From a candidate division WOR-3 bacterium (lineage in GTDB: Bacteria; Hydrothermota; Tepidihabitantia; B3-TA06), in the NCBI GenBank assembly GCA_965649265.1, contig CBFGKC010000001.1, forward strand, positions 126,516-190,515: a stretch of DNA of 64,000 nucleotides, in the 5' to 3' direction. Each line of letters opens with the position of its first letter. Position 1 is the stretch's first letter. The notes under the pieces are model-generated. The model saw nothing but the letters and a program-made list of their open reading frames with translations, was not told where the DNA came from and searched no databases. A program made the position numbers and the translations under genes. Of the stretch, positions 1-60,961 are shown one piece after another.

Positions 1-869
1 TCCGGATCGTGCCCGGCAAGCGGCGGCACGTCGAGGGGGGAGGGGAGGTAGTCAATGATGGCGTCCAGCAAGGGCTGCACGCCCTTGTTCTTGAGGGCCG
101 ATCCGCAGAGCACGGGCACTATTTTGCCCTCAAGGGTCAACCGCCTCAACGCTTTCTTGAGCGGTGCCGACTCGCTCTTGCGGCCGGCGAGAAAATCTTC
201 TAAAATCTCCTCTTCCACCTCGCTCGCCTCGTTGACGAGGCGCTCGCGCCAGCGCCTGGCCTCCTCCACCAGCTCCCCGGGAATTTCCTCCACTATGTAC
301 TCCGCTCCCAGAGTCTCGTCCTTCCAGCGCAGCGCCTTCCACTCGACTAAATCCACTATACCCTTGAACCCCTGCTCTGCGCCCCACGGGATCTGGACGG
401 GCACGGGCTTCTGCGAAAAGCGCGCCTGCATCATGTCGACGACGCGCTCGAAATCCGCAGCCACGCGGTCCATCTTGTTTACGAGCGCTATCCTTGGAAT
501 ATGATACCTGTCCGCCTGGTGCCACACGGTCTCCGACTGTGGCTCGACGCCCGCGACCGCGTCGAAGATGACCACAGCGCCGTCGAGAACCTTGAGCGAG
601 CGTTCCACCTCGATAGTGAAATCGACGTGGCCGGGAGTATCAATCACGTTGATGCGGAAATCTTTCCAGTACACAATCGTCGCCGCGGACGTAATGGTGA
701 TGCCCCTTTCACGCTCCTGCTGCATCCAGTCCATGGTGGTCGAACCCTCGTCCACCTCGCCCATCTTGTGAATCCTCTTTGCGTAGTAGAGAATCCTCTC
801 CGTAGTAGTGGTTTTTCCGGCGTCTATATGCGCGGCTATGCCTATGTTTCGAAGCTTTAAAAGGTCCAT
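1..869 (-). CDS. fusA: Elongation factor G (5' part; runs off the window start)
   Basis: Manual translation from the ATG at 869 gives [29 protein letters not shown]...[18 protein letters not shown]...[23 protein letters not shown], the EF-G G-domain motifs. Absent from the ORF track because no stop codon lies in the window. Confidence 0.95.
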
Positions 870-876
870 TGTCGGA

Positions 877-2328
877 TTAACGGGCTATTTCCTTGGCTAT
901 TTCCTTGAGGATGCCTGCGGATTTCATCCGGTCCGAAGGCAGGCAGGTCATGGTTTTGGTGTTGCGAACCTCCACCGAAACCTTTATCTCAGGTTTTGTC
1001 GGGTCCGTATTGATGACGAACGCCGGACCGGTGACCCGCTCTCTTAAAAGCGAAAGCGCAAAATTAAGATTGGCAACTTCCTCCTCCACTCCCGAATTCG
1101 CGAGAAGTATGATTCCCTGCACCTTTGCCACGAACGTCTGCCAGAGGGGCGCGAAGCGCTTGGCTCCCGGAAGCCCGTAGAGGTTGAACTGGTAAGGGCC
1201 TATCACCACCTTGCCGAAATTTAAAACCTTGTCCTCCGATTTAAGGGAGTCCTCCTCACCCGAAACGGTGTGGATGAAGATGTTTCGGGAATCCCTGTCG
1301 GTGCCTATAACGACAAGATTGAATACGTGCGTAATGGCCTGCGGCTTTAGCTCATCCCCGCCTGCCTCCTCGATATCCGCGCGCTGGCCCAGCTCCGCCA
1401 CTCCCGCCGAAATCATCGTCTTGAGAACCTCGAGGGTTCCGAAATCGGAGAAAGGGCTTTCCGTAAGCAGCTGGCGCACCGTCAGCTTTCCGTCCGCGAG
1501 CTCGGCAATGTAACTCTGCTCATCATTGAGCTCCCGTCCGTTGGCATGAATCACCGGGACGGCGTCCAGATTAAGCTCCTGCTTTATTCGCTCCGCCTCG
1601 TCCAGCTCCCGCAGCGACTCGAATATCGCCTCGTCGGTCTGGTTCTGTATCGAAGGGATCACTGAAAGACTCTCCGTGAGCTTCACCTTGAAGGTACCCT
1701 CGGACCACGAAAGCAGAGTGGGCAGAGCGGCGAGGCCGTGCTTGTTGCGGTAGTTGGCGGCTATGAGTTTTCCGGCGGCAAGGTAAAGGACTCCCTGCTC
1801 ACCGGAGGATTCCAGATACACCTCGCCCGTCTTCTGGCCGAAGGAGAGCATCTGTAAAAGATCAATAACACCGAGATCCTCGATTCTTCCCGATGTCGCG
1901 ACCTCGGACTCCTCCGAGCGCTTGAATGTCTCGCGGTAGCGCGCGTAGCGGTCCAGGAGAATTTCCATGCGCGCGAGCAACTCCCTGAACTCGAAGGGTT
2001 TCGTGAGATAATCGTCGGCTCCAAGCCTCAATCCTTTTACCTTATCCTGCGTGTCGGCGAGTGCCGAGAGAAATATGAACGGGATATTGCTCAGGTGCTC
2101 CGTTCCCCTTATGCGCTCGCAGAGCGCGTAGCCGTCCATTCCGGGCATCATTATGTCGGCAATCACTATGTCTGGCGCGTTTCCCTGCGCCTTCTCGAGC
2201 GCGACGTTCGCCGATGACGCCACCGTGACGTCGAAGCCTTGCTCCGAGAGCCTTATCTCCAGGAGATTCAAAAGATGCGGATCGTCGTCAACGACGAGGA
2301 CTTTGTATGTCGGAACCTTGGCGTTCAC
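877..2328 (-). CDS. Response regulator: REC + DUF4388 (PatA-N-like) + C-terminal degenerate MglA/CvnD-like small GTPase domain
   Basis: N-terminal receiver ([19 protein letters not shown]). Central '[27 protein letters not shown]' is typical of DUF4388. C-terminal '[25 protein letters not shown]' resembles MglA/CvnD GTPases. Confidence 0.8.
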
Positions 2329-2711
2329 GGCTTGTTCCTTGCAGAGGTGCGTTCAAGAACCGCCGCTATATCCGCCGCCACCTGCCGCGTGTCTATGGGT
2401 TTGGCTATGAAACCGTCGCACCCGCACGCGTTGACTATCTCCTCGTCATGCCTGTCGGATATTGCCGTGACCGCTATCACCGGTATCTTCTTCAAATCCA
2501 CATCTCTCTTTATGATTCGGGTCGCCTCGTAGCCGTCCATTCCGGGCAGATGCATGTCCATGAGAATCAAATCGGGTTTGAGTTCCCTTGCCAGCGCTAT
2601 GCCCTCATCGGCGGTCTGGGCGCATCTTACCACGTGGCCGACCATTTCCAGAAGCACGCGCAGGAGCTCCTGGTTGCCTTCGTTATCCTCAACCACGAGA
2701 ATGGTGCTCAC
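2325..2711 (-). CDS. Single-domain response regulator (DivK/CheY-like)
   Basis: 128 aa with ILVVEDN, DMHLPGMDG and KPI receiver motifs. Overlaps both neighbours by 4 bp. Confidence 0.9.
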   Translation of the reverse strand: MSTILVVEDNEGNQELLRVLLEMVGHVVRCAQTADEGIALARELKPDLILMDMHLPGMDGYEATRIIKRDVDLKKIPVIAVTAISDRHDEEIVNACGCDGFIAKPIDTRQVAADIAAVLERTSARNKP

Positions 2712-4261
2712 GACTGTTTCTCCTCGGTCGTCTGGCGGCCCAGGAGCTCGCCGATCTTGCGCCTGAGCGATGTACGATCGAGCTGGGCCTTGGTGAATAT
2801 ATCCCTGATGTTGCGGCCAAGATTGGCGCGGTCTATCTCCGTCAAATCCTTCGCGGTAAACAAAATCACGGGCAGGCTCTTCGTAATCTCATCCGACTCG
2901 AGCAGCCGCATGACGTCGAAGCCGTCGAGGTCGGGCATCATCAAATCGAGAACCACGAGGTCGGGTTTCTCCTTGCGCGCCGTCTTTACCCCCTCCACCC
3001 CGCTCGCGGCCTTCAGCACCTCGTAGCCGTCAATCTTGAGCATCTCCTCGATGAGACTTATATCCGCGGGATTGTCGTCAATGACGAGCACGCGGTGTGT
3101 CTTGCGGCCCTTCTGGGCGAGCCGCTCAATCTTGGACAGGAGTTCGAGTCTTGCGACCGGTTTGACCATGTAGTCCACGGCTCCAAGCGAGAGCCCGAAG
3201 CTCTTGTCCTCCACAATCGAAACGACGATTATCGGAATATCCTTTGTCTCCGGAAGCTCCTTTAACCGGTGAAGCACGCGCCAGCCGTCCATCTCGGGAA
3301 GAAGAATGTCCAGCGTTATCGCGGCCGGCAGGAGGGTTATTGCCTTGCGCAGCGCCTCCTCCCCAGTCGTTGCGACCTCGACCTTGTAGCCGGCGTCCGC
3401 GAGCCACACAGACATGAGATTTGCCGCAAGCTGGTTGTCCTCGACCACGAGAACGGGCTTGTCGGTGGGCGGAGGAAGCTTTTCCTTCAACTCGCCGGCG
3501 GCGGCCTCCATTGCCGGAGTCTTGGGCTGCTCGAACTTGACGAACGGGAGCTTTATCGTGAACGTGGAGCCCTTGCCGGGTGCGCTCGAGACGTCAATGG
3601 ACCCGCCCTGAATCTCAAGAAGCTTCTTTACGAGCGCGAGCCCGAGCCCCGTGCCCTCATATCTTCTTGTGGTAGATGCATCCACCTGATGGAATGCGTC
3701 GAAAACCTTTTTTATTTCCTCCTCCTCGATCCCTATCCCCGTGTCCGAGACCGAGACCACCAGCTTGTCACTTATCTTGCCGGCCTTGATGTTCACGTTG
3801 CCCTTCTCGGTGAACTTGACCGCGTTGGAAAGGAGGTTGTCTATAATCTGGGCAAGCTTGCGCCGGTCGGTCAACAAAGTCTCCAGAGGCTCAATCTCGA
3901 CAGTTATCTTTATTCCCTTTCTCTCCGCCAGCACGTTGTATGCCTTCAGGACATCATCCACAATCAGCGCGAGATCGGTCGGTTCGTTGAATATCTCGAG
4001 CATACCGGCCTCGAGCCTTGAGAAATCCAGAATGTCGTTCACGAGACGCAGAAGGTGGGTTCCCGACGAGTGTATGATGCTTATATAATGAGATTGCTTT
4101 TCGTTAAGACCGCCGACAAGACCGTCCATGAGGAGTTCCGAGAATCCTATTATCGAGTTCAAGGGCGTACGGAGTTCGTGGCTCATGCTTGCTAAAAACT
4201 GAGACTTGAGCCTTGCGGTCTCAATAATCTCCTGGGCTCTTTTGTTATCGTCCTGCTTCAA
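2708..4261 (-). CDS. Cytoplasmic hybrid histidine kinase (HisKA-HATPase-REC-REC)
   Basis: MSHELRTPLNSI H-box, NLLSNAVKFT N-box, DTGIGI and GTGLGL G-boxes, then two receiver domains. TTG start preceded by AGGAGG. Confidence 0.92.
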   Translation of the reverse strand: MKQDDNKRAQEIIETARLKSQFLASMSHELRTPLNSIIGFSELLMDGLVGGLNEKQSHYISIIHSSGTHLLRLVNDILDFSRLEAGMLEIFNEPTDLALIVDDVLKAYNVLAERKGIKITVEIEPLETLLTDRRKLAQIIDNLLSNAVKFTEKGNVNIKAGKISDKLVVSVSDTGIGIEEEEIKKVFDAFHQVDASTTRRYEGTGLGLALVKKLLEIQGGSIDVSSAPGKGSTFTIKLPFVKFEQPKTPAMEAAAGELKEKLPPPTDKPVLVVEDNQLAANLMSVWLADAGYKVEVATTGEEALRKAITLLPAAITLDILLPEMDGWRVLHRLKELPETKDIPIIVVSIVEDKSFGLSLGAVDYMVKPVARLELLSKIERLAQKGRKTHRVLVIDDNPADISLIEEMLKIDGYEVLKAASGVEGVKTARKEKPDLVVLDLMMPDLDGFDVMRLLESDEITKSLPVILFTAKDLTEIDRANLGRNIRDIFTKAQLDRTSLRRKIGELLGRQTTEEKQS

Positions 4262-4843
4262 CTGGCCTCCTAGGCGAAAAGCATAAAACCGTGGTAGATA
4301 TGTAGTTTAAGCCGGGTTTAAGAATTGTCAAGATGTAACGTTTCTAAAAAAGCGAAAAATTAAACGAATATCCCGGAAACTTAACACCGTAAAAACTTGC
4401 AGCAAATAAACGCTCGAGTCTTTCCCTAGGTGTGTAAAAAAGTGCCTCTTATTTCATCTTCTGTGCCGCGTATATTCATCCTCTATATAATATGTACATA
4501 CCGCACGAATCATTTTGGGACACTTAAAGCTGTCGGGAACCCCGTTCATCGAGCCCGTCATTTGGACCTGCTGCGGACCCCCTCCCCCCTGTCACTCGAC
4601 TCTCACCGATCTCCATCGACGAACGCCGGCTTTTACCCTTTGCTGCAAGCTCCTCTAAAAACAAGGTTCATACGCCGTTTAGCTCGCAGCCTTCAAGCCC
4701 CTGACGGTACTTAGCGCAGGCCGATTGTATCGGAGACATAATATTAATAGTTCTTGCTTGATTAATGTATTGTTTCTTAAATCGATACCGATTCGATACC
4801 TGCCTGTGGGGAGCATGGTCAAGTGGAATGGTGCTTACGAGTA

Positions 4844-4872
4844 TTGACATCCAAAACTTACAGGGGTATACT
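4844..4872 (+). promoter_or_regulatory. sigma70-type promoter of the large kinase/NtrC operon
   Basis: TTGACA-17 nt-TATACT about 100 bp upstream of the ATG at 4970. Confidence 0.65.
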
Positions 4873-4969
4873 ATCCTTGAATTTGGATCGGTTGTATGAA
4901 TTCCGGACAGGGGAATCACGCAACCTCCGTCTTAAACCAGGATTTGCACATCAAGGAGGGTAATGCCTG

Positions 4970-7900
4970 ATGGGCAGAAATTCCGGTGCGGCCGAAGGGC
5001 CTGTAACCGTCGAAAAAGAAAGGAAAATCAAGGACGTATTCCGCGTGAGGCTTATTCGTGGATTTCTGTTTTGGGGAGTGGTTGCAGGCGCGCTCATGTG
5101 GTTTACAGGGACCCTGATCGAGAGCGTCTTCTTTACTTACCGCCCGTATCTCGAGCAGCTGCTTTATCCGGCGACTTATACGCTGGTCGTTCACATCTCA
5201 TCGTCTTTGATATGCGTCGGTGTGGGTGTCGCACTCGAGCTCGCCCACAAACGCTACCGCAAGAGCCAGAACCGGCGTGCTGAGGAACTATCCACCCTTT
5301 TCGAAACCAGCGCGGCGGTATCTTCGACTCTTGATGAGTCCGACCTCAGACAGTTGATTGTCGACAGGGCGGGCGAGCTTTTGCGCGCGGACGGCTGCAT
5401 CTTTTACGGCTACGACGAGGTTCAAAAAGTGCTTGTGCCCATGGCCACGAGCGTCAACCTTTACCGGGAAGAGATAATGCGGTTCAACGTACCCATGGGC
5501 GAGGGAATCACGGGGCGCGCCGCGCTCGAGCGTCGTACGATTCTCGCGAATAAGGTGCATCTCAATCCCGAGGCAAAGCACATTCCGGGTACACCAAACA
5601 ACCCGACGTCGATTCTTGCGGCACCTCTGGTCTCGGGCAGCGAGTTCCTCGGCGCCATGAGCGTTCTTCGCCTGAGCGAAAGGGATTTCAACGAGCATGA
5701 CCTGGGCCTTTTCACCCTTTTCGTGAGCCAGGCTTCCGAGGCTGCGGGGCACTCAAGGCTCTTCAGCAGGCTGCGCGAATCGGAGAAGCGTTTCCGCAGC
5801 TTTGAAGGTGTGGTCACCGATATGATCTACCGGTACGATACCGGCCGCAAGGATTACGACTTCATCTCTCCTTCCTTCGAGACCATGACCGGATACACCA
5901 TCGCGGAGATCCGGAAAAACCCGCCGCATTTCTGGGAGAACCTCGTGTACCCAGAGGACGCCCAGAGGGTGAAAGACGAGATCAAGACCCAGCTCTCCAC
6001 CCGGGGGGGCGACGATTCGTACAACCTTGAATACAGGATCGTAGCCAAGTCGGGTGAGGTGCTTTGCGTGAACGAGCGCGGCAACTTCGAGCTGGACAGG
6101 GATGGTAATATAGCGAGCTTTAACGGCGTCGTAAGAGACATAACGGAACGCAAACACACCGAGCTTCTTAGAGAAGTTAAAGCCAGGCTGCTCGAAAAGC
6201 TGCGCCAGGCCGGGAGCATCGAGGACTGCCTCAACCGGGGCTGCCAGGCCGTCAGTGAGGCAAGGCTCTTCAAACGCGCGATTTTCACCACGAAGGACGA
6301 GAACGGTATGACCACCCACATCGGCCAGACCGGGATAGACCGGGCGCTGCTCGAAGAGATGAACAAAAAGCCGCCTGCTCCGAAAGAGCTGCTTGCGCGC
6401 GTCCTCAGGGAAGAGTTCAAGATAAGCCACTCGTACTTTGTAACCGCAGAATCGGGAGCCAACCTGGAGATAGCAAAAACCGGCCGGTATCTCTTGCAAG
6501 AGGAATCGTCCGGAGCGGGACCCAACGCCTGGCAAAGGGGAGACGAACTTCTCGTTCCGATGTTCGGTATGGACGGTTCGATGGAGAGTTTCCTTACCGT
6601 GGACACGCCTTACAGCGGCGCGCGTCCCGACAAGGCTACGGTGTTATATCTCGAAGACATTGCCGATATTGTGGCACGCCAGATTCACGAGATTGAGAAT
6701 CTCGAGGCACTCCGGACCTCGGAGGAGCTGAGCAGGACGGTAATTGAGCGTTCTCCTCTGGGGGTCTCAATACGAAACAAAAACGGCAAGCTTTTGAGTG
6801 CGAACGAAGCCTGGAAGAAAATCTGGGCTATGCCGGAAGTGGAATACAGGGCGGATTTGAAAAGGGAGAGACAGGAGCTTCACTTTGAAAAAAGGGACTC
6901 GTATCTTAAAACCTGGCAGCCGCAGGTCAGGGAGATATACGAGAAGGGCGGGTACCTGCATATCCCGGAGGTCCAGGTTCTGAATCCAAGGCCGGGCGGT
7001 GCCCTGTGGGTATCGCACCATTTTTACGCGATAAGGGGTTCGTCGGGTGAGGTAAGCAATGTGGTGATTCTCACGGAGGACATCTCGGACCATAAAAAGG
7101 CCGAAGAGGCGCTCATGGATTCGGAGGAACGTTACCGCAGCCTTACGGAGAGCGCTCTCGTGGGGATATACATCTTCTCGCCCGATAACCGCTTTCTTTA
7201 CGCGAACCCGGCTACCGAAAAGATTTTCGGATACACGCGCGAAGAGCTTATGGCGATGGAGAACCCCTGGGGTGTCGTCCTCGAAGAAGACATTGAAAAC
7301 GTCATAAACGAACGTGAAAGGATGCGGTTGCGCGGAGAGTTCGTGCCTCCGACGTACGACCTTCGCATACGCCGCAAATCCGGCGAGGTGGCGGTTCTCG
7401 AGATCAAATCGCACCCGATAATATTCGAAGGCAAAACGGCCTACCTGGGCAACTGCATCGACATAACCGAGCGTAAAAGAGTCCAGGATGCGCTTTCGAG
7501 GGAGCACAGCGCATTCAGGATAATAGCCGAGGCATCCATTCGCGCCGAGAATATTCCCGATTTGTGCCAGCGTGTGCTTTCGGGACTTGTTGACGCGCTC
7601 GGTTTCGACGCCGGAACCTTCAGGCTCTACGACGAGGGGGAAAGCGTTCTCGAACTGGTTGCATCTGTGGGCCTGAGGGAAGAGGAAAAAGCCAATCTCG
7701 TGTACTTGCAGACTATCGACGACCCTCGTTACGTGGCCGCGTTTACGGCGCGTACGCGCAAGCCGTTGATTGTTCCTGACGTCGCTAAGGAAGAAATGCT
7801 CGATCCTTACCTCGAAAGGCTGAATAAATTTTCCGAGCGCTCGCTCATATCATGGCCCATGCTCGGTGCGCGGGAGAATCTTCTCGGGATATGGCATCTG

Positions 7901-10204
7901 TGGTCGAGGGAAAGGGTCGAAATCTCAGGTACCGATCAGAGCTTCTTTGAACGAGTCTCAGGCATGTTCGGCGCTGCACTCGAACGCAAGCACGCGGAGG
8001 AGGCGCTTCGCGAATCCGAGGAGCGCTACCGCGCGTTCACCGAGGAGGCAATGGTCGGCGTTTACATATACCGCGAGGGCAGTTTCCTTTTCGTGAACCG
8101 GGAGATGGAGCGCATCTCAGGATACTCGAGGGAGGAACTCCTAGCCAACCCTCCCGACATCATGGTTCTTCCCGAGGAGGAGGAGAGTCTGAAGGCGCGT
8201 GAGCGCGACCAGAAGGAGGGCAGGGAGGTTCCGAGACAGTACAACATGAGAATCTATCGTAAGACCGGCGAGATATCGATGCTCGAGGTCCGCACGAGGC
8301 CCATCATCTACGGCGGCGAAATGGCCTTCCTGGGCAACTGCGTGGACGTGACCGAGGTCCGCAAGATGCAAGAAGCGCTTAGTGAATCCGAGGAGCGCTA
8401 CCGTGTTCTCACCGAGGAAGCCATGATGGGCATCTACGTCGCATCGGGCTCCAGATTCGTATTCGCAAACCCGGCCATGGAGAAAATAACGGGCTATTCG
8501 AGGGAAGAGCTTCTCGGGCTCTCGCTGGAGGATATTATCCATCCGGAGGAACTAGATGTAGCAAAGGAGCGCGAAAGTCAGCTTAAACCCGGTGAACCCG
8601 ACCAGTACAACATGAGAATCAAGAAAAAGGACGGTGGTCTGGCAGTGCTCGAGGTGCGCACCAGGCCGCTCTCCTCGACAGGGGAAGGGTCAGTCTTTTT
8701 GGGCAACTGCGTGGATGTGACCGAACTCGTGAACCAGAGGGCGCAAATCGAGCACGCGAAGCTTGAATGGGAACGCACCTTCGATTCGATACCGGACATG
8801 GTAATGATACTCGACATCCAGCAGAATATCATCAGGGCAAACAGAGCGGTGGCCGAATACATGGCAGTGGGCTTTCCGGAACTTTTGGGCAAGAAATACC
8901 TTGAAGTCTTTCACTTGAAAGGCAGGGAAAGCGCCGCGATCCGCAGGATACAGTCAAAGATTCCCGAGCACTTTGAGATAGCCGATCCCGTGACGAAGAG
9001 AACGTTCTCGGTCTCTGTCGCCCCTCTTCTCGATCCATCGGGCGAGGTGCTTGCGAGGGTTTACGTGGCCCGTGACATAACGGACATGAGGAGCATAGAG
9101 GAGGCGCTCGTTCAGTCCGAAGCACAGTTCAGAGGGCTTGCCGAAAGCGCACAGGACGTCATATTCAGCCTCGATCATGAAGGAAAAGTCCTCTACATCA
9201 ACCCGGCGCTGAAGGAGATTTTCGACTACGACCCCGCCAGTATAGTGGGGGTGACGGTAAGAGATCTTATCGAAACAAGGAACGTGCCGGCCTCGACGCG
9301 ATCGGTCATATACGAGAATCTCTTTGAGCGAACACTTAAGGGGAAAACGGCCGTTTTCGAGATAGAGATAGAGGATGCGTCCAAACGCATCCACGTTCTT
9401 GAGGTCTCTGTAAGAAAACTCCCGAACCAGATTCTGGGAATTGCTCGCGACATCACGAATCGCAAGCGAATGGAAGAACAGCTCATAAGGGCTTCCAAGC
9501 TGGCATCCATAGGCGTACTGGCCGCAGGCATCGCGCACCAGGTCAACAATCCCCTCGCGATCATGCTCGCCACTTCCACCGTGCTGCGGGATATTATTTC
9601 TTCGAACTCCCAGATACCGCCTCAGGTGTCCGAGGAAGCTTCAAAATACCTCGATACCATGGAGATACAGGTCGAGAGAACTCGCAGGGTCGTTTCAGGT
9701 CTCCTTGAATTCACCCAGCCCAAGCGAAGCGAGGTCGAGCCCTCGGACGTTAACGTGATTGTCAGCGAAGCACTCGAACTGCTTGCCGATCCGCTCGATT
9801 CATCCAACCTTGACCTCGACGTCACGTTCGACGACGATCTGCCGCTCGTACTGGTCGATCCTGTTGCCTTGCAGCAATCTCTCATCAACATTATCCAGAA
9901 TGCCTATGAAGCCATGAACGGAAAGGGCAAGCTTGAGGTAAAAATAGAAAGATCAGGGAGCGATACCATCCGCATTACGCTCTCCGATAACGGCCCTGGG
10001 ATTCCGCCTTATTTGAAGGAAGAAATATTCGAGCCGTTATTCACGACGAAGACTGACAGAAAGGGCACCGGTCTTGGGCTTCCAGTGAGTGTCATGCTCC
10101 TGGAACGCTTTGGCGGCAGTATTCGTCTCGAGGATACTCCCGGCGGCGGAGCGACGTTCGTTATAGAAGTTCCGATACGAGAAAAGGAGCAGGATGCAAG
10201 CTGA
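4970..10204 (+). CDS. Large membrane-anchored multi-GAF/multi-PAS sensor histidine kinase (NtrB-like)
   Basis: Two N-terminal hydrophobic helices, GAF domains, about 7 PAS domains ending in DITERK-like motifs, H-box AAGIAHQVNNPL, then N-box and G-boxes (DNGPGI, GTGLGL). Confidence 0.92.
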   Translation: MGRNSGAAEGPVTVEKERKIKDVFRVRLIRGFLFWGVVAGALMWFTGTLIESVFFTYRPYLEQLLYPATYTLVVHISSSLICVGVGVALELAHKRYRKSQNRRAEELSTLFETSAAVSSTLDESDLRQLIVDRAGELLRADGCIFYGYDEVQKVLVPMATSVNLYREEIMRFNVPMGEGITGRAALERRTILANKVHLNPEAKHIPGTPNNPTSILAAPLVSGSEFLGAMSVLRLSERDFNEHDLGLFTLFVSQASEAAGHSRLFSRLRESEKRFRSFEGVVTDMIYRYDTGRKDYDFISPSFETMTGYTIAEIRKNPPHFWENLVYPEDAQRVKDEIKTQLSTRGGDDSYNLEYRIVAKSGEVLCVNERGNFELDRDGNIASFNGVVRDITERKHTELLREVKARLLEKLRQAGSIEDCLNRGCQAVSEARLFKRAIFTTKDENGMTTHIGQTGIDRALLEEMNKKPPAPKELLARVLREEFKISHSYFVTAESGANLEIAKTGRYLLQEESSGAGPNAWQRGDELLVPMFGMDGSMESFLTVDTPYSGARPDKATVLYLEDIADIVARQIHEIENLEALRTSEELSRTVIERSPLGVSIRNKNGKLLSANEAWKKIWAMPEVEYRADLKRERQELHFEKRDSYLKTWQPQVREIYEKGGYLHIPEVQVLNPRPGGALWVSHHFYAIRGSSGEVSNVVILTEDISDHKKAEEALMDSEERYRSLTESALVGIYIFSPDNRFLYANPATEKIFGYTREELMAMENPWGVVLEEDIENVINERERMRLRGEFVPPTYDLRIRRKSGEVAVLEIKSHPIIFEGKTAYLGNCIDITERKRVQDALSREHSAFRIIAEASIRAENIPDLCQRVLSGLVDALGFDAGTFRLYDEGESVLELVASVGLREEEKANLVYLQTIDDPRYVAAFTARTRKPLIVPDVAKEEMLDPYLERLNKFSERSLISWPMLGARENLLGIWHLWSRERVEISGTDQSFFERVSGMFGAALERKHAEEALRESEERYRAFTEEAMVGVYIYREGSFLFVNREMERISGYSREELLANPPDIMVLPEEEESLKARERDQKEGREVPRQYNMRIYRKTGEISMLEVRTRPIIYGGEMAFLGNCVDVTEVRKMQEALSESEERYRVLTEEAMMGIYVASGSRFVFANPAMEKITGYSREELLGLSLEDIIHPEELDVAKERESQLKPGEPDQYNMRIKKKDGGLAVLEVRTRPLSSTGEGSVFLGNCVDVTELVNQRAQIEHAKLEWERTFDSIPDMVMILDIQQNIIRANRAVAEYMAVGFPELLGKKYLEVFHLKGRESAAIRRIQSKIPEHFEIADPVTKRTFSVSVAPLLDPSGEVLARVYVARDITDMRSIEEALVQSEAQFRGLAESAQDVIFSLDHEGKVLYINPALKEIFDYDPASIVGVTVRDLIETRNVPASTRSVIYENLFERTLKGKTAVFEIEIEDASKRIHVLEVSVRKLPNQILGIARDITNRKRMEEQLIRASKLASIGVLAAGIAHQVNNPLAIMLATSTVLRDIISSNSQIPPQVSEEASKYLDTMEIQVERTRRVVSGLLEFTQPKRSEVEPSDVNVIVSEALELLADPLDSSNLDLDVTFDDDLPLVLVDPVALQQSLINIIQNAYEAMNGKGKLEVKIERSGSDTIRITLSDNGPGIPPYLKEEIFEPLFTTKTDRKGTGLGLPVSVMLLERFGGSIRLEDTPGGGATFVIEVPIREKEQDAS

Positions 10205-11588
10205 AGAATCGAAAGAGAGGATAAGGGTTCTCCTTGTTGACGATGAAAGGTCCTTTCTCGAGGCGACGTCAAAGGCGCTGAACGTGAGAGGCTGCGATAT
10301 TGCCGTTGCATCGAGTGCGATGGACGCAATGGTCGAACTGGAATCGAGGTTCTTTGATGTTGTCGTTCTTGATCTCCGCATGCCCGGCATGGACGGGCTC
10401 GAACTCATGCGCAAGCTTAACGCCGAGCGCCCCACCCAAAAGGTAGTGATCGTCACGGGCCACGCCACGGTCTCGACGGCGGTGGAGGCAATGAAGCTGG
10501 GCGCATTCGAGTTTCTCTTGAAACCCGTGAGAATAGACGATCTCCTTCGCGTGATACAGCGCGGGGCCGAGCTGGGACATCTTGAGCGCCAGAACATCGC
10601 GCTTGCCGAGGAACTCGAACGGCAGCGCGGTTCGGACAAGATAGTCGGTGAAAGCCAGGCCATCAAGAGCGTCAAGGAGTTCATAGACGATGCGGCGGCA
10701 TCGAATCTTCCGGTGCTCATAACCGGTGAAAGCGGGACAGGTAAGGAACTCGTTGCCCGCGCGATACATGCGCGGAGCAATCGCTCGGCGAACCAGCTCG
10801 TGATCGTTGACGGCTCCACCCTTCGTGAAGAGCTCATCGCCTCCGAGCTGTTCGGACACGAGAAAGGCGCCTTTACGGGGGCCGTCACGAAAAAAGCGGG
10901 TCTGTTTGAGATAGCCGACAGAGGGTGTATTTTTCTCGACGAGATAGCCGAACTCTCCGCGTCCAACCAGGCCGCTCTGTTGCGCGTCATCGAGTACGGA
11001 ACGTTCAGGCCGCTTGGAGGGTTAAGGGAGGTTCACACGAACGTGCGCATCATTGCCGCGACCAACCAGGATACAAAATGCCTTGTCGCCGAGGGCAGGT
11101 TCAGGGAGGACCTCTTTTACAGGCTCGCCGGCCTGATCATAAAGATACCGCCCCTGCGCGAGCGCAAGGAGGACATACCCGTTCTGACCGATTTCTTCCT
11201 TTCACGCCACAACGTATCCAACGCGTCGCAGGTGAAAATATCCAGCCAAGCCCGGGAGGCTCTTCTCGAATACTCATGGCCGGGAAACGTGCGCGAGCTC
11301 TTGTACGTTCTGGAACGCGCCGCTCTCCTGGGCCGCAAGGAGGGTGTGATAACGGCCAACCTTGTTCCCGCGACCGACCGTAAAGATGAAGCGACCTCCG
11401 GCCAGCCTGCAGGGGAGTTTTGCCCAAAGGACAAGCCCACGCTCGCGGAGCTCTCGGCCCGTTACGAACAAGCCTACATAGGCAAGCTGCTTGCCGAGTT
11501 CGGCGGAAACAAGTCCGAGGTCGCAAGGGTGCTCGGGATAAGCAGATCCGTGCTCTACGACAAGCTGCGGAAGCTGGGACTGGAATAA
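10194..11588 (+). CDS. sigma54-dependent NtrC/Fis-family response regulator
   Basis: REC domain, Walker A GESGTGKE, intact ELFGHEKGAFTGA, FLDEI, WPGNVREL and a C-terminal Fis-type HTH. Confidence 0.95.
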   Translation: MQAEESKERIRVLLVDDERSFLEATSKALNVRGCDIAVASSAMDAMVELESRFFDVVVLDLRMPGMDGLELMRKLNAERPTQKVVIVTGHATVSTAVEAMKLGAFEFLLKPVRIDDLLRVIQRGAELGHLERQNIALAEELERQRGSDKIVGESQAIKSVKEFIDDAAASNLPVLITGESGTGKELVARAIHARSNRSANQLVIVDGSTLREELIASELFGHEKGAFTGAVTKKAGLFEIADRGCIFLDEIAELSASNQAALLRVIEYGTFRPLGGLREVHTNVRIIAATNQDTKCLVAEGRFREDLFYRLAGLIIKIPPLRERKEDIPVLTDFFLSRHNVSNASQVKISSQAREALLEYSWPGNVRELLYVLERAALLGRKEGVITANLVPATDRKDEATSGQPAGEFCPKDKPTLAELSARYEQAYIGKLLAEFGGNKSEVARVLGISRSVLYDKLRKLGLE

Positions 11589-11592
11589 ACCG

Positions 11593-11628
11593 CCCCATAA
11601 AAATACAGGGTGTTTTTATGGGGACCCC
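11593..11628. repeat. REP-like 14-3-14 hairpin element, copy 1
   Basis: CCCCATAAAAATAC-AGG-GTGTTTTTATGGGG-ACCCC, 4 nt after the stop codon. Same architecture as the copies at 14216, 17190 and 17235. Confidence 0.7.
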
Positions 11629-11922
11629 AAATAAACATCCCAGGAAACCGCTTCGAGTTTCCTTAGGGACAACACTACGTTATAGCTCCGAGAGTTTCAT
11701 CCTTCAGAACTACCCACGGCAGCTGCACCTTCGAATGGAAGCCCGGAAATCAGTTCCTGGCTTTCGGGAACCTTTTAAAAAAAACCTTCGCGGGCTTGCG
11801 AAAGCGGTATGACGATCGATTTTAAAAGAGAACCATCCTCGCCTGAGATACCTTGAGTCTGTTCGCGATGCTCCAATGCTTGAGGAGGAGGGGGGGCGAA
11901 GCGAATCGAGCCGACGATTACA

Positions 11923-11980
11923 TGTCCTAAAACCGGTCAGTTGCCCTAAAAACGGGCACCGTATGTACGGAATCCATACA
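11923..11980 (+). promoter_or_regulatory. Three tandem 17-bp dyad sites, candidate enhancer (UAS) for a sigma54 activator
   Basis: TGTCCTAAAACCGGTCA (11923), TGCCCTAAAAACGGGCA (11942) and TGTACGGAATCCATACA (11964), about 75-130 bp upstream of the -24/-12 promoter. Confidence 0.6.
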
Positions 11981-12052
11981 AGCAAGTCCAGGAATTCGAA
12001 AGCGCCCCCTCCCCATGTCTCAAAATCCTGAGACTTATGCTCAAGCGAGTCC

Positions 12053-12068
12053 TGGCACGGAACTTGCT
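12053..12068 (+). promoter_or_regulatory. sigma54 (-24/-12) promoter
   Basis: TGGCACG-GAAC-TTGCT, a perfect match to TGGCACG-N4-TTGCW. Confidence 0.85.
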
Positions 12069-12196
12069 CCTTTATTCGGGTGCGAGTTTTTGTGACGCGG
12101 TACAGGTATTGTCTTAGGGAAGACAAACCATCCTGAGAGAGTGGCTAGGGGGGTGAGGGGATAGCTTGCAAGCCGTGAACTTTAAACGGAGAGAAT

Positions 12197-12910
12197 TTGA
12201 ATAAGAGTAAGGCTAATATTCTATTTGTAGACGATGAGAGAGATTTCGCCGCAATGATGGCGAAGGTTTTGGAACTTCGCGGATTTTCAGTCGAAACTGC
12301 ATTTTCCGGCCCCAGCGCTCTTAAAACCTACCAGTCAAAAAGGTACGATCTGGTGGTTTCCGATCTCAGCATGCCGGGTATGGACGGCATCGAGCTGATC
12401 CGCGAGATTCGCAGAATCAATTCCTCTCAGCGTATCATCATAATAACAGGTTTCCCGTCGCAAGCATCCCAGAGAGAGGCATTCAAACTTGGGACAATCA
12501 ATTACATCGTCAAGCCTTTTTCCGTTAACAGGTTCCTTGAGGTGATTTCGGAGTCGCTAGAAGATGATGAGGAGGGTTTGCTGGGGCCGGTTCGTCTTAA
12601 ATGCGAGGATCTCATACAAATGTACGCGCTCGGCGCGCAAAACATTACCATAGAGATACTTAACGCTCGTACGGGCGAATTGGGCCGCGTTTTCATAGAA
12701 AAAGGCAAGGTTGTGCATGCCGAGGCGGGAAAACTCAAGGGCGAGCAGGCGTTTTACGAGATTCAGTCGTGGGACTCCGGTGTGTTCAGAACGGAACCTC
12801 TCAAGGGCAAGGTTCCCAGAACCATTGACCGCAGCCCCGATGCCCTCATCCTCGAGGCGGCGCGCAGGCTTGACGAAAGTCCTGGGGTACGCCGCAAGTC
12901 TGCAAGGTAG
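12197..12910 (+). CDS. Response regulator with DUF4388 output domain
   Basis: REC (ILFVDDE, DLSMPGMDG, KPF) followed by the DUF4388 pattern 'EDLIQMY...GRVFIEKGKVVHAEAGKLKGEQAFYEIQSWDSGVF'. Confidence 0.85.
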   Translation: MNKSKANILFVDDERDFAAMMAKVLELRGFSVETAFSGPSALKTYQSKRYDLVVSDLSMPGMDGIELIREIRRINSSQRIIIITGFPSQASQREAFKLGTINYIVKPFSVNRFLEVISESLEDDEEGLLGPVRLKCEDLIQMYALGAQNITIEILNARTGELGRVFIEKGKVVHAEAGKLKGEQAFYEIQSWDSGVFRTEPLKGKVPRTIDRSPDALILEAARRLDESPGVRRKSAR

Positions 12911-12919
12911 GAACTCCAG

Positions 12920-13243
12920 ATGCAAAAAAAGAAACAAGGCTTGAATTCATTCCATACCCTGGAGAAATTCGTGGCTCTGCTCGAGAATCTTCCCGGCGCC
13001 TACGAGGTGTACTTAACGTCCGAGGCGGGGGAGGAGGGGGTCCTCTTTTGCGGGAACAAGATAATTCGTCATGCCGCATGCAAGGATCTCTCCGGCATGA
13101 ATGCGATGAGCGAGATTCTTTCATGGAACGGGGTCAATTTTAACATCCGTCACGTTCCAACAAGCCCCGAACGCGAGATTTACATACCCCTGAACTACCT
13201 CCTTAAGGTTCTCAAGGAAAAGGTCGGGGCAGGGGTCTTCTAA
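12920..13243 (+). CDS. Stand-alone DUF4388-like protein
   Basis: 'EEGVLFCGNKIIRHAACKDLSGMNAMSEILSWNGVNF' aligns with the DUF4388 segments of the 877 and 12197 proteins. Confidence 0.65.
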   Translation: MQKKKQGLNSFHTLEKFVALLENLPGAYEVYLTSEAGEEGVLFCGNKIIRHAACKDLSGMNAMSEILSWNGVNFNIRHVPTSPEREIYIPLNYLLKVLKEKVGAGVF

Positions 13244-13358
13244 GGGCCGGTTTTCCGTCGTCTACTGAAAGCATAACAGACGTTTTTGACGAAAACATCT
13301 TGCGTCCCTCATTTTTTCCATTATAATATAGCAGTAAAGGATAAAAAGGAGGGCGTAA

Positions 13359-14210
13359 ATGCCCGAGGAGATTAGTAAACAAACGATTCCCAGCGTTTTG
13401 TTCGTCGATGACGAAGTGGATTTCGCTGAGGCCATGTCAACACTCCTGGGGGCTGAGGGTTTTGAAGTAAGCGTAGCACATTCAGGTGCCGAGGCTTTGA
13501 ATACATACTCGAAAGGGAAGTTCGACCTGATAGTGACCGATCTCAAGATGCCTGTGATGGACGGGATCGAGCTCGTGCGTAACATACGCAGGCAGAACCC
13601 GACACAACCCATCGTTATCGTTACCGGTTTCCCCGGCCAGCTTACACCCTGGAACCGCCGGTTTAACGATAAGGATGAGGATCTGGTGGAGCTTGGGTCA
13701 CTTAATTATCTCGTGAAGCCGTTCCAGCCAAAAAGACTCGTCGAGGTTGTCCGCGGCGCAATCGAAAAGCAGAAGGCAAGGCTTGCTCGCGCCAAAAGAA
13801 CCCCGCCTCTTTCGGTTGCCGTTGCCGAGCAGTCGGGGTTGAGCTGGGTGTCAAAGGTAGCCCAGAAGACCCTTGAAGAAAGCGCGGACGCCATAGACGG
13901 TCTCATGGCTTCAGGCATTGCCGATACATCGGGCCGCATTCTTGCCGAGATTAACCCGGCCTCGATCCCTCAGAACTTGTACTGCGGCCGCTTCGCGATA
14001 GTCATGGCCATACTGCGCGAGACCGCCCGCGACATGGGCAACGGCAAGGTGGTCGAGACAATCGTCGAGTCGGACTCGCACTGGAGCGTGGCTCACTTCA
14101 TAGGCCAGAGCAACTACTACCTCTGTGTCGTGGCCTCGCGCCAGACAACGCTCGGCAACCTGAGAACCCTTGTCCGCAAACTGGCGGAGCGTTTCGAGAA
14201 GGTGATATAG
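13359..14210 (+). CDS. Response regulator fused to a C-terminal Roadblock/LC7 (MglB-like) domain
   Basis: REC (VLFVDDE, DLKMPVMDG, KPF). The C-terminal ~115 aa 'AIDGLMASGIADTSGRILAE...ETIVES...YYLCVVASRQTTLGNLRTLVRKLAERF' is a Roadblock/LC7 pattern. Confidence 0.82.
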   Translation: MPEEISKQTIPSVLFVDDEVDFAEAMSTLLGAEGFEVSVAHSGAEALNTYSKGKFDLIVTDLKMPVMDGIELVRNIRRQNPTQPIVIVTGFPGQLTPWNRRFNDKDEDLVELGSLNYLVKPFQPKRLVEVVRGAIEKQKARLARAKRTPPLSVAVAEQSGLSWVSKVAQKTLEESADAIDGLMASGIADTSGRILAEINPASIPQNLYCGRFAIVMAILRETARDMGNGKVVETIVESDSHWSVAHFIGQSNYYLCVVASRQTTLGNLRTLVRKLAERFEKVI

Positions 14211-15878: not shown

Positions 15879-17147
15879 TCAGGGGAAGATGCCGCGTTCG
15901 CGGTAGACCTTCTCGATCCTCGCAAGCGCGACGATGTAAGCGGCGGTGCGCCAGTCGGTCTTGTAGTGCTTGGCGGTGTCGCGCACCTTTTCGTACGCGC
16001 GCAATATCTTTTTCGAGAGCTTGGTATCCACTTCCTCAAGCTCCCAGCGCTCGCTGCGCTTGTTCTGCAGCCACTCGAAGTAGCTGACAATCACGCCGCC
16101 GGCGTTGCAGAGGATGTCGGGAAGAACGTCAATGCCTTTCTCACCGAGAATCCTGTCGCCGTCCGGGTCTGTAGGGCCGTTTGCGCCCTCGGCCACGAGC
16201 TTCGTGTCCAGAAGCGGCGCAGTTTCAGCGGTTATCTGATTTTCGAGCGCGGAGGGGATGAAAATGTCGCACTTCGTCCCAAGAAACGTCTTGTGGTCTA
16301 TCGACTTCGAACCTGCAAATCCGGCCACGCCGCCCGTCTTTTTGACGTGCTCGGTGAGTGCGTCCGGGTCCATGCCCCTGGGATCGTACACGGCACCAGT
16401 GACGTCCTCAGCCGCGATAAGTATCGAACCATGTGGCTTTAAGAGCTTTGCGGCCCAGGAGCCGACGTTGCCGAAGCCCTGGACGGTGTATGTCGCGTCC
16501 TTGAGATTGAAACCCTTGTCCTTAGCCCAGGCCTCTATCGTAAAGACGACGCCCTGGCCGGTTGCCTTGTCGCGGCCGAGGCTTCCGCCCGACTCGATAG
16601 GCTTGCCGGTAACGACGTGCACGGAGCGCTGGCGCTCCGTGGGCGGGACGGTCGAGAGATAAGTGTCGAGAATCCATGCCATTATCTGAGGATTGGTGTT
16701 GACGTCGGGGGCAGGGATGTCGTACTCGGGACCAATGGTGTTGCCGAGCGCGTAGGTGAAGCGCCTCGTAATCCTCTCGAGCTCCTGTCTCGAATACTTC
16801 GAGGGGTCTATCTGGATGCCGCCCTTTGCGCCGCCGAGCGGGATGTCGGCGATAGCGGATTTCCACGTCATCCAGGTCGCGAGCGCGCGAACCTCGTCGA
16901 TGTTCACCGCGGGGTGGAAGCGCAGGCCGCCCTTGTAGGGGCCGAGCACGTTTGAATGCTGGACGCGGTAGCCGGTAAATACCTCTATCCGGCCGTCGTC
17001 CATCTTGACGGGGAAGTTGACCTCGACCTCATTGGTCGTTTTGGCAAGAATGGTGCGGATGTTGGGGTCCAGCCCCATGAGATCAGCCGCTTTGTTGAAT
17101 TGCCAGCCTACGTTTTCGTAAACGCTGGGCTTATTTTGGGTTTCCAT
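15879..17147 (-). CDS. gdhA: Glutamate dehydrogenase (Glu/Leu/Phe/Val dehydrogenase family)
   Basis: GPYKGGLRF, GGAKGGI, DIPAPDVNT, VTGKP, QGFGNVG, EGANGP and NAGGVIVSYFEW motifs. Confidence 0.93.
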   Translation of the reverse strand: METQNKPSVYENVGWQFNKAADLMGLDPNIRTILAKTTNEVEVNFPVKMDDGRIEVFTGYRVQHSNVLGPYKGGLRFHPAVNIDEVRALATWMTWKSAIADIPLGGAKGGIQIDPSKYSRQELERITRRFTYALGNTIGPEYDIPAPDVNTNPQIMAWILDTYLSTVPPTERQRSVHVVTGKPIESGGSLGRDKATGQGVVFTIEAWAKDKGFNLKDATYTVQGFGNVGSWAAKLLKPHGSILIAAEDVTGAVYDPRGMDPDALTEHVKKTGGVAGFAGSKSIDHKTFLGTKCDIFIPSALENQITAETAPLLDTKLVAEGANGPTDPDGDRILGEKGIDVLPDILCNAGGVIVSYFEWLQNKRSERWELEEVDTKLSKKILRAYEKVRDTAKHYKTDWRTAAYIVALARIEKVYRERGIFP

Positions 17148-57348: not shown

Positions 57349-57364
57349 TGGCACGTATCTTGCT
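57349..57364 (+). promoter_or_regulatory. sigma54 promoter
   Basis: TGGCACG-TATC-TTGCT, a perfect consensus match. Confidence 0.8.
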
Positions 57365-60945: not shown

Positions 60946-60961
60946 TGGCATAAATCTTGCT
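60946..60961 (+). promoter_or_regulatory. sigma54 promoter
   Basis: TGGCATA-AATC-TTGCT at the position equivalent to the 57349 promoter. Confidence 0.75.

Follow-up and report, generated by a model that had tools for sequence, protein, structure and literature searches.

Small Ras-like GTPases and their Roadblock partners set cell polarity in several bacteria, and to our knowledge the signal input to such systems is known in detail only for Myxococcus. A locus of a candidate division WOR-3 bacterium, positions 877-14210 of a 64,000-nucleotide stretch of its DNA (here called the window; assembly GCA_965649265.1, contig CBFGKC010000001.1, positions 126,516 to 190,515), raises the question of whether a whole switch of this kind has been placed under two-component control. 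One gene of the locus joins a receiver (REC) to a domain resembling a small GTPase, another joins a receiver to a Roadblock domain, and PATAN (DUF4388) domains occur in the same stretch. The initial annotation described a single 13-kb island in which the two fusions formed the halves of one MglA/MglB-like GTPase switch. Here we present a different answer: judged by its nucleotide-binding motifs, the G domain of the gene at 877-2328 is a conserved pseudo-GTPase, with predicted loss of GTP binding and hydrolysis, and the 13-kb stretch probably consists of two independently inherited two-component modules that stand back to back by chance in this genome. Treating the two modules as one system would mislead experiments. 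Receivers covalently joined to PATAN, Roadblock and G domains nevertheless make the locus a compact protein set for phosphorylation input into such networks.

Organization of the locus

The genome under study (2.74 Mb, 96% complete) is denoted G000 and its relative of the same genus G110; the window proteins of interest are P0001 to P0004. In the open reading frame (ORF) listing, the gene calls at 877-14210 match the initial annotation, and Pfam bore out its two kinases and seven receiver domains; two clear and one divergent PATAN/DUF4388 domains complete the inventory. The minus strand carries module A, a hybrid histidine kinase (H-box SHELRTPLN), a single-domain receiver protein whose gene overlaps each of its two neighbors by 4 nt, and a 483-amino-acid (aa) regulator (P0001), followed by a gene for elongation factor G (EF-G). 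The plus strand carries module B, a giant kinase, an NtrC-type activator, a REC-DUF4388 protein (P0003), a 107-aa ORF (P0004) and a REC-Roadblock protein (P0002). Coordinates are collected in Table 1. The receivers matched Response_reg throughout, those not listed in the table being the two stretches in the hybrid kinase (1.1e-41), the activator (1.3e-29) and P0002 (2.6e-24). Inspection of four receivers by eye showed that each retains its acidic pair, phospho-Asp, Ser/Thr and Lys.

The G-like domain of the 483-residue regulator

As a single sequence, the C-terminus of P0001 matched Arf with an E value of 0.0042 and 17 bits, below the Pfam cut-off of 22.3. Because the single-sequence matches of the C-terminal domains were below cut-off in Pfam and weak against the PDB, alignments of orthologues from related genomes were built for the G-like domain (A2, 11 sequences) and for the Roadblock domain of P0002 (A3, 9 sequences). 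The A2 profile matched Arl8 structures in the PDB at 1e-07. An AlphaFold2 model of the domain (predicted local distance difference test score (pLDDT) 84.7, predicted template-modeling score 0.81) matched Arl8b (8e-09), Rab8 and RhebL1 (E values of about 1e-08) and also Rab5 in Foldseek, with template-modeling (TM) scores of 0.68-0.74. By profile and Foldseek, the C-terminus of P0001 has the G-domain fold of a Ras-superfamily/MglA-family small GTPase. The MglA/CvnD-like domain that was initially annotated is therefore correct as to fold and fusion; what had passed unnoticed is that three of its motifs, G1, G3 and G4, are lost.

In place of the G1 (Walker A) motif GxxxxGK[ST] the domain reads GTDRDSRN. 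All close members have G-x-x-R-x-x-R-N at the P-loop position, and the R and N, which occupy the former Lys and Ser/Thr positions, are invariant (11 of 11). In the HMMER alignment of the family profile, QYSGKT of Arl8 corresponds to DRESRN, and hhalign (89% probability, E 2e-06) against an intact 205-aa GTPase encoded in G000 pairs GTDRDSRN with GKDEAGKS. The G3 motif DxxGQ (TxxGQ in MglA) is replaced by GLPGA, in which both the Asp/Thr and the catalytic Gln are substituted; the counterparts are LFGTPGQTRF in the intact 205-aa GTPase and LYTVPGQ in the MglA-like protein of this genome. The G4 motif [NT]KxD has given way to INTDP after the fifth strand, a position that was mapped by eye. The loss is derived, because a distant REC-PATAN-NTPase subfamily retains GxxxSGKS in nine of 12 aligned members and because the nearest free-standing relatives, found in a library of 1.84 billion protein representatives, keep GKS and PGQ.

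The domain is not decaying. Between G000 and G110 the ratio of nonsynonymous to synonymous substitution rates (dN/dS) is 0.05 for the receiver, 0.016 for PATAN, 0.29 for the linker and 0.08 for the G-like domain, values that are rough, dS being saturated (1.4-1.9); the low value of the G-like domain relative to the linker indicates purifying selection. The family is rare: among 15 representatives of the library at E values of 1e-10 or better, about eight (clusters at 50% identity) are true members, the rest being giant repeat proteins with numerous short matching segments. The product of 877-2328 is thus a candidate bacterial pseudoGTPase of a rare family kept under selection. With the motifs that it has, the domain as it stands cannot be an MglA-type GTP switch or the substrate of a GTPase-activating protein (GAP). 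In the open-access literature we found no paper on receiver-fused dead G domains and none combining 'WOR-3' with 'MglA'.

The domain could alternatively still switch with nucleotide through an unusual P-loop (Arg in place of Lys, Asn in place of Ser/Thr), so that the protein would combine phosphorylation with nucleotide state. This would account for the invariance of the replacement R and N in the 11-sequence alignment, which is more than decay would leave, and the distant subfamily with its retained Walker A motif lends this idea some color. It is nonetheless very improbable, as G1, G3 and G4 are altered together, with changes of the Gly before the Lys, of the switch II Asp and Gln and of the guanine-specifying Asp. 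Changes of the Walker A Lys to Arg generally abolish activity in P-loop NTPases.

A free-standing copy of the pseudo-GTPase, a 174-aa ORF with R..RN at the P-loop position too, was observed in another genome of the phylum (L075:8035-8559, G191:C77), with genes for an ACT-domain protein and a 330-aa PATAN protein downstream. The 167-aa ORF beside it (L075:8755-9258) had no match to the Roadblock or G-like profile. Contig C4 of G000 holds an ACT-PATAN pair like that of G191, adjoining a Roadblock gene.

The Roadblock and PATAN domains

The C-terminus of P0002 as a single sequence matched MAPKK1_Int (0.0076) and Robl_LC7 (0.015, 15.5 bits versus a cut-off of 23). The A3 profile matched MglC (7ct3) at 8.2e-12, archaeal Roadblock proteins at 1e-08 to 5e-06 and MglB at 0.02; its match to the CvnB5 structure 3leq was weak (E 0.14). 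In Foldseek, the AlphaFold2 model (pLDDT 80.5) found MglB (6h5b_C at 6.6e-08, and 3t1s, with TM scores of 0.66-0.70), Ragulator MP1/p14 and archaeal Roadblock proteins, with TM scores of 0.63-0.71 overall. The alpha-beta-alpha fold of Roadblock/LC7 proteins (MglB/MglC) and a family sequence match are both present in P0002, and one homologue bears a source name that includes Roadblock/LC7/MglB. The annotated fusion of a Roadblock/LC7 domain to its own receiver on a separate gene is therefore confirmed, so that both C-terminal domains have the folds, small GTPase and Roadblock, that had been assigned to them. The Roadblock domain is nearest to MglC by profile and to MglB by fold. In sequence it appears nearer to the non-GAP MglC than to MglB. 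Its closest paralogue is the Roadblock domain of a REC-PATAN-Roadblock protein on contig C7 of G000 (33% identity, E 8e-21). A predicted complex of two Roadblock domains and the G-like domain scored 0.03 against a mark of 0.32 and was not used either way.

The three DUF4388 domains of the initial annotation fared unequally. Two exceed the Pfam cut-off of 25 bits (PF14332), that of P0001 with 58.8 bits and that of P0003 with 50.9 bits. The third, in the 107-aa ORF, had no Pfam match even at E values up to 10. This ORF has an orthologue in G110 (69% identity). Over 95 residues it shares 35% identity (E 6e-21) with the N-terminus, itself PATAN-like, of a PATAN-Roadblock protein of G000, and it matched the local PATAN profile with an E value of 0.0019 among 14,491 ORFs. 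As there is homology and no Pfam match, it is a divergent PATAN-like domain and not one of Pfam grade. The role initially proposed for DUF4388, that of a docking domain common to these proteins, is hypothetical.

Distribution and gene neighborhoods

The survey comprised 201 genomes of the phylum, searched with one query for each of the two C-terminal domains. Eleven genomes, G000 among them, have a match to the G-like domain, ten of them solid, the match in G142 being weak (81 residues in a 291-aa frame); by family, the matches fall in all six genomes of f1, both of f2 and one of f11. The Roadblock query matched in 35 genomes. Receiver-fused frames (283-302 aa) occur only in G000, G110, G129 and G169, and the remaining matches are weaker (E 2.5e-10 or worse) and mostly free-standing proteins of about 125-150 aa. 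The query had no match in the three genomes of genus g2 (89-95% complete), G143 and G187, all of which have the G-like gene, and G189 has, beside its G-like gene content, only a 126-aa free-standing Roadblock match. In total, the G-like gene occurs without a REC-Roadblock gene in six of the ten solid genomes (G091, G177, G191, G143, G189 and G187).

Module A was seen in ten of the genomes and module B in four. In the fetched neighborhoods scanned with Pfam, module A begins with the hybrid kinase and continues with REC, REC-PATAN-G-like and EF-G; in f2 and f11 an extra GAF kinase stands between REC and REC-PATAN-G-like. This order with EF-G was checked with Pfam in G000, G110, G191, G129, G169, G143 and G189; the loci of G177 and G091 agree by ORF sizes. 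The core of module B (giant kinase, REC-PATAN, REC-Roadblock) is present in G000, G110, G169 and G129, orthologues of the giant kinase (1667-2199 aa) heading it in the three relatives, and the NtrC gene, the small PATAN gene and the sigma54 promoter belong to it only in the two genomes of this genus.

The two modules share a contig only in G000, where 11 kb and five genes separate the G-like gene from the Roadblock gene on the opposite strand; in G110, G129 and G169 they are on different contigs. In G110, whose proteins are 79-90% identical, module A stands mid-contig by ferritin, rubrerythrin and hemerythrin genes. Adjacency and co-inheritance of the two fusion genes in the manner of MglA/MglB were thus not found. 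The single 13-kb island of the initial annotation dissolves into two separate modules, and the conserved neighbor of the G-like gene is EF-G and not Roadblock. Co-occurrence of the two fusions holds in one direction: module B was never found without module A (all four REC-Roadblock genomes also have the pseudo-GTPase gene), whereas module A often lacks module B and linkage is missing in the relatives.

A GTPase-and-activator pair is unlikely because the GTP-binding residues are lost and the clusters are neighbors only in this genome. The full version of that idea, one MglA/MglB-like switch in which the REC-PATAN-G-like protein sits on a REC-Roadblock dimer, each gated by its receiver and with the PATAN domains docking, is quite improbable. 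Both folds are correct, the fusion genes are close together in G000, the co-occurrence just described fits, PATAN, Roadblock and MglA-like genes are linked across G000 and, according to a passage in print (PMC4316618), elsewhere, and a G domain without GTPase function might still rest on a Roadblock platform. In such a switch, however, gating would act on no GTP switch and a GAP would lack a GTPase to stimulate; six of ten solid genomes do without the REC-Roadblock gene; the genes are unlinked in three relatives, with unrelated flanks of module A in G110; and by profile the Roadblock domain is nearer to MglC (8e-12), an adaptor that is not a GAP, than to MglB (0.02).

The EF-G gene beside module A

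The EF-G gene begins 7 nt past the stop codon of 877-2328 and extends to G000:C1:125321. EF-G follows the regulator directly in seven of eight loci checked with Pfam, and in two more by ORF size; the locus of G187 has no EF-G. EF-G is probably the last gene of the module A transcription unit. G000 has two EF-G genes, 35% identical. Against TIGR00484 (cut-off 659 bits), the copy adjoining module A reaches 863 bits and the second copy 659.5 bits. Both types are present, each about 54% identical, in all five sampled genomes of the class without module A. The adjacent EF-G therefore did not arrive with the module as a lineage-specific paralogue, an idea that we rejected on this ground. EF-G is a resident gene that has had module A at its side from the ancestor of two families onward, and their adjacency is what suggests that the two may be linked in function.

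Such a link could consist in translation control, the phosphorylated REC-PATAN-pseudoGTPase acting on EF-G or on the ribosomal GTPase-associated center as a mimic or competitor. The directly adjoining EF-G in two families, the narrow gap (7 nt here, 5-7 nt in most other loci by ORF coordinates) and the two EF-G types of G000, one of which could be a regulated copy, speak for it. We consider it improbable: adjacency is the sole evidence, and a synteny conserved from one ancestor counts as one event; EF-G did not come with the module, as the five genomes without module A show; the adjoining copy is the one with the highest score on the canonical EF-G model; and the most distant module A locus, that of G187, has no EF-G alongside.

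The sigma54 promoter and its activator

The element TGGCACGGAACTTGCT, 129 nt upstream of the REC-DUF4388 gene in the 608-nt gap that follows the NtrC stop codon, is a perfect -24/-12 match. Perfect matches number two in the window (0.04 expected) and 25 in the 2.74-Mb genome. G110 has TGGCATGGAACTTGCT between its NtrC and REC-PATAN genes, and a paralogous island on C7 of G000 has TGGCACAAAGATTGCT between its NtrC and REC-PATAN-Roadblock genes; in the module B loci of G169 and G129, which have no NtrC gene, no site with at least nine of 11 sigma54 consensus positions was found. The features of an NtrC-type enhancer-binding system, namely REC, an AAA+ domain with intact GAFTGA, HTH_8, a -24 GG/-12 GC promoter and rpoN in G000, are all present. 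The palindrome TGTACGGAATCCATACA (TGTAC-N7-ATACA), 73 nt upstream of the -24 element, is unique in the window, with 0 expected, and G110 has similar GTAC...GTAC palindromes ahead of its promoter. From its position, the activator would drive this promoter; the initial claim that the local sigma54 activator induces the DUF4388 operon accordingly holds for the perfect and conserved promoter site, GAFTGA and rpoN, with the pairing of activator and promoter read from gene order. The public sequencing runs listed as containing this DNA are four DNA runs, all of one study, with no RNA run among them.

Between the NtrC stop codon and the promoter lie about 460 nt of non-coding sequence (11589-12052) with a hairpin at the start (CCCCATAAAAA...TTTTTATGGGG); the C7 paralogue has instead a leader of about 390 nt after its promoter. 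Further sigma54-type sites at 57349-57364(+) and 60946-60961(+), with zero and one mismatch, precede a 952-aa protein (57636-60494) with a sorting tail of the type IX secretion system (T9SS) and an ORF of more than 916 aa (61252-63999) without a Pfam match. T9SS sorting tails are common among neighboring genes in G000, and sigma54 may control secreted cargo here.

PATAN, Roadblock and G proteins in the genome

G000 has 13 Roadblock matches (nine above cut-off) and 16 DUF4388 matches (13 above). Contig C4 holds a gene pair coding for an MglB-like (164 aa) and an MglA-like (191 aa) protein. Single-chain REC-PATAN-Roadblock regulators are encoded once on C7 and once on C11, and a PATAN-like-Roadblock protein on C3; the order of the C7 island is PAS kinase, NtrC, sigma54 promoter, REC-PATAN-Roadblock. 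A locus on C5 (G000:C5:180856-182891, L052:4857-6892) combines a Roadblock protein of 156 aa, a PATAN-like protein of 344 aa, with a weak PATAN match and a Roadblock-looking tail, and the intact 205-aa GTPase, which keeps GKS and GTPGQ and is the nearest active relative of the dead G domain. The C5 locus is a possible model of the state before fusion.

No match to the T2SSE (PilB/PilT) or T2SSF (PilC) family was found in the 96%-complete G000. PATAN action on type IV pilus motors was therefore rejected for this organism; the type IV pilus link of PATAN and MglA does not apply here, and the network controls something other than type IV pilus output.

Directly 3' of the REC-PATAN-Roadblock genes lie a 158-aa ORF (G000:C7:179747-180223) and a 163-aa ORF (G000:C11:96679-97170), mutually unrelated. 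With local profiles and phmmer, neither these nor a 128-aa ORF on C7, which is probably spurious, showed G-like, PATAN or Roadblock relatives.

Proposed mechanism

We favor, with some reserve, a single joint reading in which both modules belong to one large PATAN/Roadblock/small-GTPase signaling network. In module B, the giant kinase would phosphorylate all three receivers, those of the activator, the REC-PATAN and the REC-Roadblock protein. The activator, bound near 11964-11980, would fire the sigma54 promoter and thereby raise the levels of the REC-PATAN protein, the small PATAN protein and the REC-Roadblock protein, so that one signal would both induce and phosphorylate the outputs of the module, a feed-forward loop. 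These outputs are protein-binding domains, and the MglC-like Roadblock domain would pair either with further Roadblock proteins or with the intact MglA-like GTPases that other loci of G000 encode.

In module A, the sensor-less hybrid kinase and the lone receiver would form a phosphorelay ending on the REC-PATAN-pseudoGTPase. The G domain descends from a 'GxPGQxRF' MglA-like GTPase and, stripped of its residues for nucleotide binding and catalysis, retains a strongly conserved switch-II-like surface. Phosphorylation of the receiver, and not GTP/GDP exchange, would expose this surface and the PATAN domain to a partner. A bolder form, in which the protein is a phosphorylation-operated small-GTPase mimic whose frozen switch-II-like surface docks a Roadblock platform, an MglA effector or EF-G, is in our judgment unlikely. 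If true, the receiver would do the nucleotide's job, with a bacterial pseudoGTPase as signaling output, and a G-protein switch would have been rewired into a two-component pathway in an organism that has a large PATAN/Roadblock/MglA network and no type IV pili. The most likely picture is that of two modules of one PATAN/Roadblock/G-protein network, one of them ending in a conserved pseudoGTPase.

Several points weigh against this picture, in addition to the saturated dS. The profile behind the label 'MglC-like' was built in part from free-standing Roadblock proteins that come from other families in the phylum. Every assignment of a receiver to a kinase rests on gene adjacency, and a scan for sigma70-like promoters gave eight matches versus 7.1 in shuffles, no enrichment. 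The absences come from one protein query each in genomes that are 89-96% complete. Through the Arg that replaces the Walker Lys, contact with phosphate, and so nucleotide binding, is conceivable. Finally, as module B was never found without module A and the two are adjacent here, a functional link between them may exist.

Comparison with known systems

Passages of the published sources already connect these families. PATAN genes are stated to occur near mglA/mglB homologues (PMC4316618, citing Makarova et al. 2006), so that, as far as this passage goes, the linkage of PATAN to MglA/MglB is already in print. A part of the same paper describes actinobacterial conservons as combinations of a histidine kinase, a Roadblock protein and an MglA-family GTPase. 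PATAN is presented as a protein-binding output domain in a preprint on Synechocystis (10.1101/2021.06.11.447907), and RomR, MglC and MglB are reported in a portion of PMC10329633 to form a complex.

The locus resembles the MglA/MglB/MglC/RomR module (Myxococcus xanthus, Thermus thermophilus) in combining a Ras-like G fold, Roadblock partners and a response regulator, and G000 holds a free-standing MglB-like/MglA-like gene pair as well. It differs in that the G domain stands behind REC and PATAN, without G1, G3 and G4, that the Roadblock domain is fused to its own receiver, that the two genes are not a conserved pair, and that the known type IV pilus output is missing, there being no PilB/PilT or PilC match in G000. 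With PatA-type regulators (PixE/PixG) it shares the combination of PATAN and receiver and, as far as the cited passages go, mglA/mglB homologues nearby. The order here is REC-PATAN, unlike the PATAN-REC order of PatA-type regulators, and some proteins have a third, G-like or Roadblock, domain; for PilB1 and PilC, the known partners of PATAN, no counterpart was found in G000. Unlike the conservons (CvnA, CvnB, CvnC, CvnD), the locus has neither the four-gene order nor a CvnC; it includes receivers, and its G domain is a dead one within a fusion protein.

A further likeness is to units of giant kinase, REC-PATAN and REC-Roadblock, which have the same three-gene core as module B, and to REC-PATAN-Roadblock regulators, of which G000 has two single-chain paralogues; this genus differs in having an NtrC-type activator gene, a sigma54 promoter and a small PATAN gene inserted between kinase and regulator genes. 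We found no paper on such regulators or units in the open-access literature. In eukaryotic pseudoGTPases, the G-domain fold remains under selection after the loss of the nucleotide motifs. The domain in P0001 is like them in keeping the fold without these motifs and unlike them in being bacterial and fused to a phospho-receiver.

Features of the locus

Table 1. Features of the locus with their positions in the window, strand and supporting evidence
Feature	Position	Strand	Evidence
EF-G gene, 5' part (full gene 688 aa, L076:7319-9385)	3..869	-	GTP_EFTU 3e-69; all EF-G domains
REC + PATAN/DUF4388 + variable linker + predicted pseudo-GTPase, 483 aa (P0001)	877..2328	-	Pfam, family alignment A1, per-domain dN/dS
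Ras/Arf-fold pseudo-GTPase domain (predicted) of P0001, residues 336-483	880..1323	-	profile versus PDB, AlphaFold2 and Foldseek, hhalign
PATAN/DUF4388 of P0001, residues 146-245	1594..1893	-	DUF4388 7.1e-16, 58.8 bits
Receiver of P0001, residues 10-121	1966..2301	-	Response_reg 1.7e-29; D14/D15, D58, K110 invariant in A1
Single-domain receiver protein, 128 aa	2325..2711	-	Response_reg 1.4e-24; present in all orthologous loci
Sensor-less hybrid histidine kinase, HisKA (from residue 19)-HATPase_c-REC-REC	2708..4261	-	HisKA 1.3e-24, HATPase_c 1.2e-30
Divergent intergenic region, two best sigma70-like matches of 15 kb scanned	4304..4872	.	4331-4304(-), 4844-4872(+)
GAF/multi-PAS giant histidine kinase, 1744 aa	4970..10204	+	Pfam, hydropathy, H-box
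NtrC-type sigma54 activator, REC + AAA+ + HTH_8	10194..11588	+	Sigma54_activat 3.4e-61; GAFTGA at residue 225
Candidate activator site, palindrome TGTACGGAATCCATACA	11964..11980	+	single match in window
Sigma54 -24/-12 promoter TGGCACGGAACTTGCT	12053..12068	+	perfect consensus match
REC-PATAN response regulator, 237 aa (P0003)	12197..12910	+	Response_reg 2.4e-27, DUF4388 2e-13
Stand-alone divergent PATAN-like protein, 107 aa (P0004)	12920..13243	+	homology, local PATAN profile
REC-Roadblock response regulator, 283 aa (P0002)	13359..14210	+	profile, AlphaFold2 and Foldseek
Roadblock domain of P0002, about residues 169-283	13863-14207	+	closest = MglC

The two sigma70-like matches of the divergent intergenic region agree with the hexamers at 10 of 12 (minus strand) and 11 of 12 positions (plus strand) and are weak. 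Two ORFs without a Pfam match were treated as non-genes, 4430-4714(+) and 11710-12126(-), the latter covering the promoter region with a translation unlike that of a protein. Two N-terminal hydrophobic stretches, from a crude hydropathy plot, suggest a membrane anchor for the giant kinase. Two glutamate dehydrogenase genes each have PATAN/Roadblock genes a few kb away: that at 15879-17147(-) of the window follows module B, and that at G000:C4:41110-42360 precedes the ACT-PATAN-Roadblock locus, a placement that may be coincidence.

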